Source: Myxococcota bacterium (lineage in GTDB: Bacteria > Myxococcota > XYA12-FULL-58-9 > JALHOP01). From it: a stretch of DNA of 64,000 bases. This document shows, piece after piece, positions 544 through 24,263 of this stretch; within the stretch, counting starts at the first letter, position 1; each line of letters opens with the position of its first letter. The stretch spans positions 57 through 64,056 of the forward strand of contig JBGGMJ010000092.1 of assembly GCA_041288095.1 (NCBI GenBank), given 5' to 3'. Made by a program: the position numbers and the translations under genes. The notes below the pieces were generated by a model. It searched no databases and was not told where the DNA came from. It saw nothing but the letters and a program-made list of their open reading frames with translations.

Positions 544-2829
544 CTACGGCGCCGGCCGCCGCCGCCGCACGATCCGATTGTTCTCCGTGTCGGCGATGTA
601 CATATCCTCGCCAACCGCGACCATGTTGACCGGTGTGTTCAGCGTGTCGATGCCGATGCCGCCGTTGTTCGCGAGGTTCACGGTGAACGACGGCTGGCCG
701 AGGACATAGTCCGCCGGAGCGTTGTTGGTCGCCGGTACGCCGCGCCACACCAGCACGCGGTTCCCGGTCGTGACGTAGAACAAGCCGTCGGCGTAGTGCA
801 GGCCCAGGACGTTACCGGTGGTCGTTGGTCCCGCCGGCTGCGCCACCGCCAGGGCCATCGACGCCTGACCGAGCACGACATCCGCGGGCGCCGCGTTGGT
901 CGTTGGGATGCTGTTCCAGATGAGCACGCGGTGGTTGCCGGTGTCGGCGACGGCGATGCCGTTCGGGGTGAAGCAGACATCGCGCGACGAGCGCAGCGAC
1001 GAGGCAGAGAGACCGCCCGTGTTCGAGGTGACGACATCCATGCTGGGTTGGCCCAGGACAACGTCGGCTGCGTCGTTGGCGTCGGTCGGAATGGTGTTCC
1101 ACAAGAGGATGCGGTTGTAGCTCGTGTCCGCTACGGCGAAGCGCGTGCCATCGCTGTCGAGGTTCGTCGGCTGGCGGAACGTCGAGCCATCGACCACCGC
1201 GCTGGGCGCAATGGCGTCGAGCGTTGGCTGGCCGAGCGCCCGCGCCGGCGGCACGTTGGCCGTAGGCACGCCGTCCCACACGAGGATGCGGTGGTGGTCG
1301 CGGTCGATGACGTGGAGATTCCCGCCGATGACGCGAGCCGCTGTCGGGAACAGGAGGCTCTCGCCGTCCGTTTGGTCCTCGTGCGGGTCGTAAGTGACGA
1401 GGTCGGGCTGGCCGAGCACGAAGTCGGCGGGGGTGCCGGGGGCGCTGGAAAGCGCATTCCAACCGAGCACGCGGTGATAGATGAAGTCGACGACGAGGAC
1501 CTGCTCGCCGTTCACCACCACGTCCATCGGTAGGCCCAAGGCCAGACCGTTCACCCCAGAAGCGGGCGTACGCTTCGAGCCGCTGTTCAAGCCCGGCTGA
1601 CCGATGACCGCGATAGCGGCTCGTGAGGCCACGGGGTCGAAGAGGCTCGTCGCATAAACCAAAACGCGGTGCGCCAGCGCGTCGGCGAGGTAGACCTCGT
1701 TGCCGCCCACCGCCAAGGCGCGTGGTGAAGCCAGGGTCGTGGCGCTGTACAGCGGTACCAAGCCGCCGACGTGAATCGAGCCACCGAAGACGATGTTCGC
1801 CGCTTGGTTGTTCGCCGTGATGGGCACGTTGAACACCAAGGCGCGGCTGCCGGCCGAATCGAAGACCACCGTGTTGGTGCCCGCGAAGCCGAAGCCATCG
1901 GGTGTTTCGAGCGAGGAGGCGGTCTGCGATGGCGGAAGCGTCCCGGTGATGAAGTTTGCCTGGCCGAGCACGAAGCTCGGTGGCACCGCGGCGCCCGGCA
2001 CCGTGTTCCACACGAGCACGCGATTGTTGCCGGAGTCGGCGATGAATAGCCGTGTGCCGTCGCTCGCGACCGCCGCCGGCACGAACATGCCGTTGGCATT
2101 GACCGAGGTCCCGGCGTTGGCCGCGCCGCTCGTCAGGTTCGGCTGGCCGAGGGCGAAGCTCGCCGCGACACCGTTCACCGTCGGCACGTTGTTCCACACC
2201 ATGACGCGGTTCTGCGCGGTATCGGCCACGAAGAGCGCGCTGCCGACGAGGGCGACGCCGCGAGGGCCATTCATCCCCGTCGCGGTGATGCCGCGACCGC
2301 CGCTCGTCGAGAAATCAGGCTGACCGACGACCACGGAAGCCGCCTCGAAGTTGGTGGTCGGAAGGGGCTGCCAGATCAAGACGCGCGAGTTGGACGTGTC
2401 CGCGACAGCGAGCGTGTCGCTGTTGCAGGCGATGCCGTCGGGGAAGCTGAGCCCGCGCGCATCGACCCCCGCGTAGTTGGAGGCGCGAGTCGTGAAGGTC
2501 GGCTGGCCGAGCACCAGTGACGGACGGCCGCGCGCCGGGAAGCTGTCCCAGACGAGGACGCGGTGGTGGAACTGGTCCGCCACGAAGAGCCTGCCGCCGC
2601 AGATCGCGAGGTCGCTCGGCAGCTCCAACCCGTCCTCGAGGTTCGCGTTGACCAGCCCCGACGCTTGCCCCAGGAGCACCACGGCCGTGTCGTCGTCCGT
2701 GGGTCCGCTATCGCCGTCACCCTGGTCGTTATCCCCGTCGCCGTCGAAGTCTCCCGGCGTATCGTCGAGCAGCGCCGACCGGGCGCAAGCGCCGACCGCC
2801 AAGGCCGCGACCAGCGGCACGAAGCGCAT
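544..2829 (-). CDS. NHL-repeat beta-propeller lipoprotein (secreted)
   Basis: An internal ATG gives MRFVPLVAALAVGAC, a lipoprotein-type signal. An acidic D/G-rich linker follows, then more than 10 repeats of an NHL-like unit (..NRVLVW.., ..HRVLVW.., ..NRVMVW..). The start overlaps the sctT stop (TGATG at 2831-2827). The track ORF start at 2883 was trimmed. Confidence 0.75.
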   Translation of the reverse strand: MRFVPLVAALAVGACARSALLDDTPGDFDGDGDNDQGDGDSGPTDDDTAVVLLGQASGLVNANLEDGLELPSDLAICGGRLFVADQFHHRVLVWDSFPARGRPSLVLGQPTFTTRASNYAGVDARGLSFPDGIACNSDTLAVADTSNSRVLIWQPLPTTNFEAASVVVGQPDFSTSGGRGITATGMNGPRGVALVGSALFVADTAQNRVMVWNNVPTVNGVAASFALGQPNLTSGAANAGTSVNANGMFVPAAVASDGTRLFIADSGNNRVLVWNTVPGAAVPPSFVLGQANFITGTLPPSQTASSLETPDGFGFAGTNTVVFDSAGSRALVFNVPITANNQAANIVFGGSIHVGGLVPLYSATTLASPRALAVGGNEVYLADALAHRVLVYATSLFDPVASRAAIAVIGQPGLNSGSKRTPASGVNGLALGLPMDVVVNGEQVLVVDFIYHRVLGWNALSSAPGTPADFVLGQPDLVTYDPHEDQTDGESLLFPTAARVIGGNLHVIDRDHHRILVWDGVPTANVPPARALGQPTLDAIAPSAVVDGSTFRQPTNLDSDGTRFAVADTSYNRILLWNTIPTDANDAADVVLGQPSMDVVTSNTGGLSASSLRSSRDVCFTPNGIAVADTGNHRVLIWNSIPTTNAAPADVVLGQASMALAVAQPAGPTTTGNVLGLHYADGLFYVTTGNRVLVWRGVPATNNAPADYVLGQPSFTVNLANNGGIGIDTLNTPVNMVAVGEDMYIADTENNRIVRRRRPAP

Positions 2830-3650
2830 CAAGTGCCGCGCACCAGCAGCGAGATCAGCTCTTCGACGACGCTGAGCGCCCATTCGAGATAGGCCAACAT
2901 GCGCGTGACCAGCGGCTCCATCGCGATGAAGATCATGATGATGCCGGCCATGGCCTTGACCGGCATCGAAAGGAAGTAGGCGTTGAGCTGCGGCGCCACG
3001 CGGTTGAGGATGCCGAACACCAGGTCGGTGATGAAGGTCGCGGCGATGACCGGCGTCGCGATGAGAACGCCGATGAACAGCATCTCGCCGGTGACGCGCA
3101 TGATGAGATCGAAGAACGGCCAGAGCGCGCCGCCGTAGTCCAGGTGTACGTCGAGCGGGATGACTTCGAAGGAGTGAGCGTAGGCCTGCAGGAAGATGCG
3201 GTGGCCCCCCATCGCCATGAAGACGACCAGCATGAGCTGGAAGAAAAGGTCACCGATGGGGGTGGCGCGCTCGCCGGAGAGCGGCACCATGACCTCGGCC
3301 ATCGAGGTGCCACGCACGGTATCGATGACGCGGCCGGCGACCGACAGCGTATCGAAGCTCGAGGCCATGAAGCCGATGGTGAAGCCGATGAAGACTTCCT
3401 TCATCATCAAGAAGAAGAACGGAATGGGCGTGACCGGCACGGCCCCGGTCATCGTCGCCCGCGCCAGCGGCCACACCAAGATGGTGACCATCACACCGAT
3501 GCCCATCTTGATTTCGGGCGGGATGTTCTTGCCGCCGAGCCACGGCGTCTGCGTGACCATCGTCAGGGTGCGCGTCGCCATCAACGCCGCGATGAGCATC
3601 TCCTGCTGATAGTTGAGCGCAATGCCGAGGCGCTGGAGCAGGGCTTCCAT
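2829..3650 (-). CDS. sctT: T3SS export apparatus protein SctT (FliR/YscT family)
   Basis: 273-aa polytopic membrane ORF of FliR/SctT size and character. It lies directly after sctS and sctR in the conserved R-S-T order. Confidence 0.85.
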   Translation of the reverse strand: MEALLQRLGIALNYQQEMLIAALMATRTLTMVTQTPWLGGKNIPPEIKMGIGVMVTILVWPLARATMTGAVPVTPIPFFFLMMKEVFIGFTIGFMASSFDTLSVAGRVIDTVRGTSMAEVMVPLSGERATPIGDLFFQLMLVVFMAMGGHRIFLQAYAHSFEVIPLDVHLDYGGALWPFFDLIMRVTGEMLFIGVLIATPVIAATFITDLVFGILNRVAPQLNAYFLSMPVKAMAGIIMIFIAMEPLVTRMLAYLEWALSVVEELISLLVRGT

Positions 3651-3673
3651 GGGGCGTCAGCGGCCTCGCTCGA

Positions 3674-3952
3674 TCAATAAACGACGTTCGGAAAATTCTC
3701 GAAGCACATCTGCGTGAACTTCAGCAGCGCCGAGCCGAGCCACGGGCCGAAGGCGGCGAGCGACGCGAAGATGATGATCATCTTCGGTACGAACGTGAGC
3801 GTCGCCTCTTGGATCTGCGTCACCGCTTGGAACAGCGAGATGATGAGACCGACGATCATCGACAAGATGATCGGCGGACCGCAGACCACGATGACCATGA
3901 GCAACGCTTCGTTGGTCACGCGGATGACGAAGTTGATGACTTGCTGATCCAT
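3674..3952 (-). CDS. sctS: T3SS export apparatus protein SctS (FliQ/YscS family)
   Basis: 92-aa two-helix hairpin membrane protein (..LLMVIVVCGPPIILSMIVGLIISLFQAVTQIQEATLTFVPK..), typical of FliQ/SctS. Confidence 0.9.
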   Translation of the reverse strand: MDQQVINFVIRVTNEALLMVIVVCGPPIILSMIVGLIISLFQAVTQIQEATLTFVPKMIIIFASLAAFGPWLGSALLKFTQMCFENFPNVVY

Positions 3953-23634: not shown

Positions 23635-24126
23635 TTAGACCTGCGTGTTCATCGTCTGCTTGATGCCGCTCGTCGCCTTCTCGATCACCTTCGAGGTGAG
23701 CTCGAGCTCTTGCGAGAAGCGGTAGACGCCGGCTTGCATGGCGAGGAGCTCCGGCGGGCTGAACTGCCGACCCGAGAGCGCCATCTTCATGATGCCGTTC
23801 ATCTTGTCTTGCCCACCGATCATGTCGTTCAGCATGTCGGCCCATTTGCTGCGCTCAGCATTGGCGACTGCGTTGACTTTGACCGAGGGAAGATTGGCGT
23901 TGATCTTGGCTTGAGCGAGAACGTTCTTGGCGCTGTGCGTGCCTTGGACGTGATGGGCGTCGCCCGCTTTGTTGGCGTGATTCACGCCATGGGCGTCCAT
24001 CGTTTCTTTGAAATTCGTTCCGCCTGTGCCGTGCTGCTTGTCTAACTTCTGAAGGTCTTGCTGCGCTTTCTGCAGCTCCTTCATCATCTCACTTGCTGCG
24101 TGACCGATGCCGGTACCCGTATCCAT
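23635..24126 (-). CDS. sctI: T3SS inner rod protein SctI (YscI/PrgJ family C-terminus) with extended N-terminus
   Basis: The C-terminal ..FSPPELLAMQAGVYRFSQELELTSKVIEKATSGIKQTMNTQV follows the SctI C-terminal pattern (P.eLL..Q......s...el.sK...K....i..l). GGAGG lies 7 nt upstream of the ATG. The N-terminal part is His/Gly-rich. Confidence 0.6.
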   Translation of the reverse strand: MDTGTGIGHAASEMMKELQKAQQDLQKLDKQHGTGGTNFKETMDAHGVNHANKAGDAHHVQGTHSAKNVLAQAKINANLPSVKVNAVANAERSKWADMLNDMIGGQDKMNGIMKMALSGRQFSPPELLAMQAGVYRFSQELELTSKVIEKATSGIKQTMNTQV

Positions 24127-24236
24127 GCCGACCTCCGTCTATATATCGAAGCGTGCGTTCTACGCTTTTCAGCGCTGTTCGCCCGCGGGAAACCTGTACG
24201 CGTGTGCAGGACACACTACACCCAGGTCTTTGGATA

Positions 24237-24263
24237 TTATCGGACAGGAGCAGCGCTGGTTGT
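24237..24263 (-). promoter_or_regulatory. Candidate sigma-28-like promoter of sctI (ACAACC-N15-CGATAA)
   Basis: The minus strand reads TA-ACAACC-AGCGCTGCTCCTGTC-CGATAA-T. The same hexamers with the same spacing recur at 38030-38004. The site lies 111 nt upstream of the sctI ATG. Confidence 0.45.

Follow-up and report, generated by a model that had tools for sequence, protein, structure and literature searches.

A non-flagellar type III secretion locus of the Myxococcota type with FliG-like, FliO and FliA-like genes and cargo at its junctions

[quoted passage not shown] The reading that we favour, and hold to be probable, is that of a Myxococcota-type non-flagellar T3SS with a FliG-like protein, FliO and a FliA-like sigma factor, whose compact operon has been broken open by cargo genes. 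The ancestral unit consists of the gene of the FliA-like sigma factor, a promoter and the series SctI-J-FliG-like-L-N-O-P-Q-FliO-R-S-T, with genes for a TPR chaperone and for another small, conserved protein upstream; in the window genome, lineage-specific genes interrupt this unit at several of its junctions. The host belongs to Myxococcota, as the FliG-like product is 100% identical to ACAI38_10470 from a MAG labelled Myxococcota bacterium, and all members of the family encountered so far come from MAGs of uncultured Myxococcota and 'Deltaproteobacteria'.

Core genes and their relation to flagella and injectisomes

Open reading frames (ORFs) were picked by length and by the G+C content of the third codon position (GC3) and scanned against Pfam and NCBIfam. 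Both collections confirm the core gene order claimed in the initial annotation, that is, along the minus strand, SctI-like, SctJ, FliG-like, SctL, SctN, SctO, SctP/FliK-like, SctQ, FliO, SctR, SctS and SctT (Table 1). A genome scan with the FliG-like profile yielded 17 related loci, all of them from MAGs labelled Myxococcota, Deltaproteobacteria or 'uncultured Bdellovibrionales', and the window proteins were mapped onto these by tblastn. The core ORFs are intact, and both their order and their sequence are conserved across MAGs, down to 45% identity of the FliG-like protein.

SctJ, SctN, SctQ, SctR, SctS and SctT, together with an inner-rod protein, are present in the conserved order, the call of the latter (SctI) being weak. 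In hhalign comparisons the SctI-like protein gives E 0.011 with YscI and E 0.003 with needle proteins, its segment 'SPPELLAMQ' aligning with 'NPALLADLQ'; the C-terminus is invariant across 11 loci, and the profile has no match in PDB or Pfam. The rod gene of the initial annotation is retained with a weak assignment, and of its SctO- and SctP-like calls the former is confirmed by its YscO-like match, whereas the Flg_hook match of the latter is slightly below the gathering score (29.8); an orthologue of this SctP/FliK-like protein in the P0487 locus carries PF02120, and its position is conserved among the relatives. The true start of SctL is likely near 18873, and the start given for SctR is that of the gene call on locus L001. 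The exact SctT product was otherwise met only on an ENA contig of 4.9 kb. The ORF 544–2883 encodes an NHL-repeat protein and not a T3SS part; with the limits used here it has no database record.

The family scores point to a non-flagellar system. The ring protein is a lipoprotein of the SctJ type and not FliF, SctO is YscO-like, SctR passes both SctR cut-offs of NCBIfam and SctQ that of SpaO/YscQ, whereas the fliP model remains below its cut-off (195 bits) and FliM far below. SctL scores higher with HrpE/YscL (106.5 bits) than with FliH (92.7 bits) in NCBIfam, and SctS passes both the non-flagellar and the flagellar cut-offs. Of the flagellar proteins, FliG, FliO, FliM/FliN and FliA are all detectable but divergent, and FliM and FliN are fused as in SctQ. 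Such mixed NCBIfam scores are as expected for a system near the split between flagella and injectisomes.

Among plasmid records, the best matches of the window SctN are those of the Ysc family and of Desulfovibrio (54–55% identity), the identities with FliI being given as 43–48% or as 42–51%. A neighbour-joining tree of 162 sequences was an unresolved comb and was replaced by one that was built from 35 sequences by the same method, with 200 bootstrap replicates and F1-beta as its root (M. xanthus not included). In the latter, the canonical injectisomes form a clade (84% support) that excludes the window family, while the Myxococcota clade (98%) comprises the window family, the T3SS of a Myxococcaceae MAG, P0122 and two orphan paralogues. 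The grouping with the Myxococcaceae MAG T3SS has 93–98% support, and the deeper nodes have 60–69%; the node at which the Myxococcota and injectisome clades join, together with P0127 and the orphans from Kofleriaceae and without any labelled FliI, has 60%. Flagellar homologues being included, the window SctN is not found among the labelled FliI but beside the canonical injectisomes, in agreement with the basal position of the 'Myxo' T3SS group (PMC3459982). The locus fits a Myxococcales-type T3SS close to the split, as had been proposed in the initial annotation, and the placement inside a flagellar clade that was named there as a refutation is not seen in this single-protein distance tree, whose deep nodes are weak.

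Other SctN-related ATPases were also observed. Orphan ATPases of the SctN/FliI family occur in Myxococcota and Kofleriaceae (L033, L034, L035 and L036, at 10001–11500 in each), where the surrounding 10 kb hold no further T3SS gene; with the window SctN, those of L035 and L036 have 71% identity. The ATPase gene of L036 is located directly downstream of that for a large protein with FHA and Yop-YscD_cpl domains, and in L035 one such gene is about 7 kb upstream. In P0123 (632 amino acids, aa), P0128 (656 aa) and similar proteins, a FliI/SctN ATPase is fused to a FliH/SctL-like region that makes up the N-terminal 200 aa or so.

The retained flagellar operon order was the leading point of the initial annotation. 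However, Yersinia pYV carries yscI-J-K(-L) and yscN-O-P-Q-R-S-T-U, the Desulfovibrio plasmid pDsulf-L2-1 has a contiguous sctJ-x-sctL-x-sctN-O-P-Q-R, and both are colinear with fliF-G-H-I-J-K and fliM-N-O-P-Q-R of E. coli K-12. Since these injectisomes have the same order, it is not specifically flagellar, and we rejected it as a distinguishing trait. What differs from the injectisomes is that two slots are filled by the FliG-like and FliO genes and that sctU does not follow sctT. The FliO homologue was also found in L007, and FliO has been described in non-flagellar T3SS operons of Myxococcota, including both M. xanthus systems (2025 PNAS, PMC12403147). Gene order and FliO alone offer nothing new; what is new in this variant is a FliG homologue that is well preserved and has interface motifs matched in its partner, a locus in which SctD, SctU and SctV are missing, and a regulatory module of the FliA type.

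Some expected parts were not found. Pfam and tblastn searches detected no SctU, SctV, SctC or SctD anywhere in the window, nor, for 18 related loci, at distances of up to 10 kb from the FliG-like gene; in the Myxo type, SctU and SctV belong to the cluster. The needle-family genes listed in the initial annotation could not be confirmed, as no SctF gene was detected within 544–24263, nor in the 18 loci over the same distance. As is characteristic of the Myxo type, neither secretin nor needle nor translocon is seen in the DNA of the window and the related loci. On the flagellar side, FliE, FliK and FliL have no tblastn match, and the claim that hook, flagellin and motor genes are lacking is borne out by the scanned window ORFs, which comprise part of the small ORFs: no rod, hook, flagellin or MotAB domains were found in them.

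The FliG-like adaptor

The middle (M) domain of the FliG-like protein exceeds the Pfam gathering score, while its N and C domains have weak Pfam matches; many members of the family carry precomputed matches to PF14841 or PF01706 (FliG_M or FliG_C). The family profile (A1, 38 sequences) has significant matches in PDB only among FliG entries (E from 4e-6 to 0.005), the alignments covering the middle domain and, weakly, the C-terminal one. The sequence profiles detected none of the SctK families and detected FliG instead. The AlphaFold2 model has a predicted local distance difference test score (pLDDT) of 88 and a predicted TM-score (pTM) of 0.74. In a Foldseek search of PDB with this model, ranks 1–12 are occupied by FliG, aligned over the full length with probability about 1, and rank 13 by PscK, the SctK of Pseudomonas (PDB 6uie), which has the best TM-score (0.42, target-normalised; probability 0.85). 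The profile and the model together indicate a full-length FliG homologue with a three-domain helical architecture.

The protein is among the better-conserved products of the operon (64–70% identity, compared with 47–53% for SctJ and 49–59% for SctQ). Its most conserved stretch, 'GESPRVVA', aligns with the region of the EHPQ motif of FliG, with ESPR or ESAR in place of EHPQ; apart from this motif alignment, hhalign of the profile against E. coli FliG or the Desulfovibrio protein at the SctK position, each taken singly, had too little signal. In FliG-FliM complexes the EHPQ motif contacts the GGXG motif of FliM. In the window SctQ, 'DRLLGGNG' aligns with 'DNLFGGDG' of E. coli FliM, and this GGXG motif is shared by five relatives, whereas YscQ does not have it. 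In SctJ, a C-terminal transmembrane helix leads into a cytoplasmic tail of about 30 aa that is conserved, the stretch 'MRLRxVRGRLLRLQxEIAKARRKP' being retained among the relatives.

The FliG- and FliO-like calls of the initial annotation survive profile tests, and the former also the structural one; their unexpectedness does not, given that FliO has been published and that the FliG and SctK families are stated to share a Pfam clan (bioRxiv 10.1101/2025.03.14.643159). Because of this common clan a FliG relative at the SctK position is expected and hence not novel in kind; what is distinctive is that the length and the domains of FliG are retained. The Myxo T3SS has been stated to be without FliG (Abby & Rocha 2012, PMC3459982), whereas here a full-length FliG-like protein is present. 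In the Myxococcaceae MAG locus L037 the gene following sctJ encodes a protein of 203 aa that weakly matches the family profile (E 0.013) and is in register with the FliG-like family at 'PSW..ESP', which hints at a truncated FliG-like homologue.

Upstream module and junction cargo

The FliA/WhiG-like sigma factor is 70–86% identical and syntenic in nine relatives, and its gene lies directly upstream of SctI in L005–L009, L012, L013, L016 and L017. In most relatives it is preceded by the genes of a 159-aa protein, a TPR protein and a 185-aa protein, the corresponding region of the window being 35132–37887. The TPR protein is conserved among the relatives and resembles T3SS class II or needle chaperones. 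In the 185-aa protein conservation is high over the last 55 aa, which terminate in ..SNIMKTKHDTAKNxIxNVR. Comparison with needle proteins gave an hhalign E of 0.004 at a probability of 8%, the profile had no match in Pfam and PDB, and in the single-sequence AlphaFold2 model the N-terminus is disordered, while the C-terminus forms a long helix. By eye the C-terminus resembles those of needle proteins, and the protein is possibly a candidate secreted axial protein, the only one besides SctI. In L016, the most divergent relative, two copies of the conserved C-terminal segment were seen about 600 bp apart (L016:5582–5746 and L016:6178–6342). The conserved 159-aa protein is encoded at 36129–36608, between the TPR and sigma genes; by position only, it might be a FlgM-type anti-sigma factor.

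Just upstream of the SctI-like gene there is a promoter-like motif, CAACC-N15-CGATAAT, whose -10 part resembles the sigma-28 element GCCGATAA. The pattern CAACC-N13-16-CGATAAT has one match in the window and none in 100 shuffles, and each of nine related loci contains exactly one match, which in every case immediately precedes SctI. The window has no exact copy of the sigma-28 consensus TAAA-N14-16-GCCGATAA. The leader between the motif and the SctI start (24127–24235, minus strand, about 110 nt) is well conserved among close relatives and ends in a conserved ribosome-binding region, 'ATATAGA(C/T)GGAGGT', which is seen in distant loci as well.

Other observations concern the surroundings of this module. 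The stretch 24415–35098, between the sigma gene and the SctI promoter, holds an RND operon and a 496-aa plus-strand ORF without family match; in the three closest relatives (L002–L004) SctI is preceded by an OEP gene. A Ser/Thr protein kinase gene and the methionyl-tRNA formyltransferase gene (fmt) precede the T3SS module, at 39857–42793 in the window, and have the same order in L006–L009 and L013; the kinase may take part in regulating the system. Farther away, the product of 48325–51801 has 1158 aa, with a response-regulator receiver domain at the N-terminus and also a DUF4388 domain; in the stretch where this gene lies the AT skew is unusually strong (0.34), and G+C reaches its maximum for the window (0.70).

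The non-T3SS genes reported at the junctions are real at four of them: FliG/SctL (the 634-aa HExxH protein and a 136-aa membrane ORF), SctN/SctO (the 673-aa protein, the 779-aa DUF4781 protein, the HD_4 protein and a small plus-strand gene), SctO/SctP (GNAT) and SctP/SctQ (Kup). The synteny comparison shows that the 17 related loci share the core order, and that distant members (L005, L007, L013 and L017) have a compact SctI-J-FliG-L-N-O-P-Q-FliO-R-S-T with few or no inserted genes. The presence of cargo is patchy even between loci with 93–97% identity, and most of the cargo in the window appears, from this distribution, to be a recent and variable insertion.

The HExxH protein has no Pfam, NCBIfam or PDB match and is a candidate metalloprotease effector. 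No tblastn match was found for this protein, the 779-aa protein (E <= 1e-5) or the HD protein in the other loci, including L002–L004 with 93–97% identity. The 146-aa partner of the HExxH protein proposed in the initial annotation (19029–19469) was rejected, as its GC3 of 0.48 is non-coding; the overlapping 136-aa ORF at 18944–19354 is the likely gene, which has no family match and has copies only in L002–L004 (51–60% identity). The 673-aa protein occurs only in L003 (75% identity). In the 779-aa protein, residues 601–685 match RelA in PDB with E about 0.6; the HD_4 gene overlaps the stop of this gene, and its product matches the SpoT/RelA hydrolase family with E 4e-4 and small alarmone hydrolases in PDB with E 0.02–0.13. 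Because a weakly RelA/SpoT-like protein is thus followed by an overlapping alarmone-hydrolase-like gene, the two suggest a toxin and immunity pair. Thus, the positions claimed for the toxin/HD pair and the annexin-like protein between sctN and sctO stand, while the toxin and annexin matches themselves are marginal.

GNAT and Kup are common to close relatives only: the former is present in L002 and L004 and absent from L005, L007 and L017, the latter is present in L002 and absent from L005 and L017. The small plus-strand gene has no family match and has counterparts of about 110–130 aa in the same gap (L002:13691–14029 and L003:16715–17050). In L002, L003 and L004 the SctN/SctO gap was also seen to hold, on the opposite strand, a signal-peptide-like protein of about 570 aa.

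Other members of the family carry different genes at the same junctions, and hence the junctions are tolerated insertion points. At the SctP/SctQ junction L013 encodes a 719-aa protein (L013:14730–16889) with an IpgD/SopB domain (PF05925, 102 bits, E 3e-29), a phosphoinositide-phosphatase domain that in known pathogens acts on eukaryotic host cells; the source of this locus is a 'Bdellovibrionales bacterium' MAG. The SctN/SctO junction of L010 contains genes for a PLP enzyme and for a metalloprotease of family M10 that has PPC domains, peptidases M1 and M14 follow SctP in the P0487 locus, and PutA and a hybrid histidine kinase are found elsewhere in other members. Some of the junction genes look like effectors and some like housekeeping genes.

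Table 1. Features of the T3SS locus and its upstream region (window coordinates; scores in bits or E-values; GS, gathering score)
Feature	Coordinates	Strand	Evidence
SctI-like axial protein (inner rod family), 163 aa	23635–24126	-	PF17001 E 0.008, weak
SctJ inner-membrane ring lipoprotein, 292 aa	22667–23545	-	YscJ_FliF 78 bits; TIGR02544 139.6 bits vs FliF 41.8
FliG-like adaptor at the SctK position, 340 aa	21615–22637	-	FliG_M 28.5 bits (GS 25)
634-aa HExxH protein, cargo	19642–21546	-	C-terminal motif FHELGHLAEH in translation
136-aa single-pass membrane ORF	18944–19354	-	GC3 0.78 (coding-type)
SctL/FliH stator	18178–19032	-	FliH 88.8 bits, T3SS_SCTL 25.2 bits (Pfam)
SctN ATPase	16805–18148	-	TIGR02546 601 bits vs FliI_clade2 593
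673-aa cargo protein, weak annexin-like C-terminal repeat	14711–16732	-	PDB annexin V E about 0.03, residues 608–671
Small conserved gene in the SctN/SctO gap, opposite strand	14325–14714	+	GC3 0.82
779-aa cargo protein	11284–13623	-	DUF4781 95.9 bits; RelA_SpoT E 0.0076, residues 601–685
HD_4 protein (alarmone-hydrolase-like)	10514–11284	-	HD_4 32.1 bits (GS 27.2)
SctO/FliJ stalk	9982–10476	-	YscO-like 99.6 bits vs FliJ 28.7
GNAT acetyltransferase	9467–9985	-	Acetyltransf_1 80.7 bits
SctP/FliK-like length-control protein	8612–9457	-	Flg_hook 27.8 bits, residues 210–279
Kup potassium transporter	6657–8561	-	K_trans 604.9 bits
SctQ	5385–6638	-	FliM 49.8, FliMN_C 72.4 bits; SpaO_YscQ 101.8 bits (cut-off 100.8)
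FliO homologue	4795–5385	-	PF04347 44 bits (GS 22)
SctR	3975–4808	-	FliP family 230 bits; NF009438 249 and yscR 221.5 bits pass cut-offs
SctS	3674–3952	-	Bac_export_3 97.6 bits
SctT	2829–3650	-	Bac_export_1 177.8 bits
Promoter-like motif CAACC-N15-CGATAAT upstream of the SctI-like gene	24236–24262	-	-10 part resembles sigma-28 element
RND efflux operon (OEP, two AcrB, HlyD)	24415–33504	-	Pfam
FliA/WhiG-like sigma factor	35132–36016	-	TIGR02479 163.7 bits (cut-off 189.6); next family 87 bits
TPR protein	36739–37155	-	LcrH_SycD E 1.8e-9, SctY E 7.7e-6, CdsG E 6e-5, all below cut-off
185-aa conserved protein	37330–37887	-	Possible secreted axial (needle-like) substrate, weak support

Alternatives, proposed mechanism and comparison with known systems

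Several points weigh against a Myxococcota-type T3SS of the composition described above. SctU and SctV are essential, and neither they nor SctD, SctC and SctF were found in the window or the related loci, hence a working machine cannot be asserted from the window DNA. The SctN tree is a neighbour-joining tree of one protein with the key node at only 60–69%, and no M. xanthus sequence was in the direct comparison. The score of the sigma factor does not reach the FliA/WhiG cut-off, and the motif departs from the sigma-28 consensus in its -35 part. The toxin, immunity and annexin assignments have E-values of 0.008–0.6, and the predicted contacts of the SctJ tail with the FliG-like N-domain and of the M-domain with SctQ are derived from motif conservation. 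Finally, the negative result for flagellar genes covers one MAG contig, and such genes may occur elsewhere in the genome.

If the locus were part of a canonical injectisome, its outer parts as well as SctU and SctV would be encoded at other loci, as in Chlamydia, and the FliG-like protein would be the SctK of this lineage, binding an SctD from another locus. Such a scattered arrangement would suit the closeness of SctN to its Ysc and Desulfovibrio counterparts (54% identity), the IpgD/SopB-type effector domain in a relative, the LcrH/CdsG-like TPR protein adjoining a small protein with a needle-like C-terminus, and PscK as the best non-FliG structural match. We nevertheless regard it as unlikely, since SctC, SctD, SctF, SctU and SctV are missing from all the DNA searched, SctN is outside the canonical clade, the adaptor has 340 aa with M and C domains compared with about 210 aa in SctK, and the published Myxo systems themselves are without secretin and needle (PMC3459982). 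Vice versa, in a decaying flagellar cluster (fliF-R) the rod, hook, filament and motor genes would have been lost and the remainder overwritten by insertions. FliG, FliO, the FliM domain of SctQ, the FliK-type C-terminus and the FliA-like sigma factor are all present in the order of fliFGHIJK and fliMNOPQR, SctU and SctV are outside the cluster, as are flhBA in E. coli, and the operon is interrupted by many insertions. But intact core ORFs conserved at such divergence, the 292-aa SctJ-type ring protein in place of FliF, the YscO-like SctO, the SctR and SctQ that pass non-flagellar cut-offs where flagellar models fail, the SctN apart from labelled FliI, and the SctI-like gene in place of fliE make this explanation very improbable.

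The third alternative concerns function and is compatible with the preferred reading rather than exclusive of it. The system might work like the needleless T3SS* of M. xanthus, that is, by inner-membrane-only export of lytic or toxic proteins together with a Tad/Kil-type machine in prey killing (PMC12075869, PMC10433427). The common phylum, the grouping of SctN with the Myxococcaceae MAG T3SS (93%), the lack of any secretin or needle among the genes found, the candidate RelA/SpoT-like and HD_4 toxin/immunity pair and the secreted-type proteases are in line with this proposal. It is weakened by the facts that no Tad/Kil genes were identified in the window, that the toxin assignment is weak, that the IpgD-like and annexin-like cargo points to eukaryotic rather than bacterial targets, and that the published T3SS* cluster has SctD, SctU and SctV, which the window locus does not. 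We treat it as possible, though less likely than not.

Returning to the preferred reading, a Myxococcota-type T3SS with FliG-like, FliO and FliA-like components, we propose the following mechanism. SctR, SctS and SctT, helped by FliO, would form the export channel within the SctJ ring, and SctL, SctN and SctO would energise export; if the machine works, SctU and SctV would be encoded elsewhere. Because no SctD was found, attachment of the sorting platform would probably follow the flagellar mode: the FliG-like protein would bind, with its N-domain, the conserved cytoplasmic tail of SctJ, as FliG binds FliF, and, with the ESPR motif of its middle domain, the GGXG motif in SctQ, which is FliM-like. 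The operon is probably transcribed from the conserved CGATAAT promoter by a sigma factor of its own, the FliA-like one. Some of the junction genes likely encode substrates, the candidates being, in the window, the HExxH and annexin-like proteins and the RelA/SpoT-like one together with the HD protein, and in the relatives, the IpgD/SopB-like protein and the metalloproteases. Kup, GNAT and the RND pump would be plain insertions.

The origin of the injectisome from the flagellum has so far been reconstructed mainly from gene presence and absence. A full-length FliG with matching motifs, no SctD in the locus, and a FliA-type sigma factor with a sigma-28-like promoter would make a part of this reconstruction testable and open the questions of how the sorting platform was first attached to the ring, whether SctK arose from FliG by loss of the C-terminal domain, and whether sigma-28 control was inherited. 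It is conceivable, though we consider it rather doubtful, that this lineage preserves an earlier stage of the transition from flagellum to injectisome than the Myxococcus systems, with SctD-free C-ring attachment of the flagellar type, FliO and a sigma-28-type regulator alongside injectisome-type effectors such as the IpgD/SopB-like protein; if true, the FliG-like protein, the 203-aa Myxococcaceae homologue and canonical SctK would form a graded series from FliG to SctK. The effectors of the Myxo-type T3SS class being so far unknown, the junction cargo (IpgD-like, proteases, annexin-like, RelA/SpoT-like with the HD partner) provides a shortlist of candidate substrates for it. The interest of the locus is moderate and lies mainly in research on T3SS evolution.

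The closest known systems are the Myxo T3SS (PMC3459982) and T3SS* (mxan_2434–2464; PMC12075869, PMC10433427). The window locus shares with them the phylum, the SctI/J/L/N/Q/R/S/T core, the absence of detected secretin, needle and translocon, FliO (PMC12403147), an LcrH-like TPR chaperone, and an SctN beside canonical injectisomes that groups with the Myxococcaceae MAG T3SS. Unlike them, the window family has a full-length FliG-like gene, a locus without SctD, SctU and SctV, and a unit including a FliA-like sigma factor and a sigma-28-like promoter, and it is known only from uncultured MAGs.

With the flagellar fliFGHIJK and fliLMNOPQR of E. coli K-12 the locus has in common the gene order, the M and C domains of FliG, the GGXG motif, FliO, a FliK-type C-terminal domain, a FliA-type sigma factor, and flhBA-type genes outside the cluster. 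In contrast to the flagellum, it has a short SctJ lipoprotein instead of FliF, FliM and FliN fused as SctQ, a YscO-like SctO and an SctN outside labelled FliI, and in the window it is without FliE, FliL, rod, hook, flagellin and MotAB. The Ysc (pYV) and Desulfovibrio (pDsulf-L2-1) injectisomes share with it the I-J-K-L-N-O-P-Q-R-S-T order, the SctJ lipoprotein, and YscO and SctR-type proteins, and their SctN is the closest characterised one (54%); unlike the window, their loci contain SctC, SctD, SctF, SctU, SctV, a gatekeeper and a translocon, and a short SctK that is not FliG-like, and have neither FliO nor a FliA-type sigma factor. SctK binds SctD, which was not found here. The FliG-like protein occupies the same position between sctJ and sctL as SctK, and PscK (PDB 6uie) is its best non-FliG structural match, but with 340 aa and FliG-type M and C domains it is distinct from the SctK of about 210 aa.

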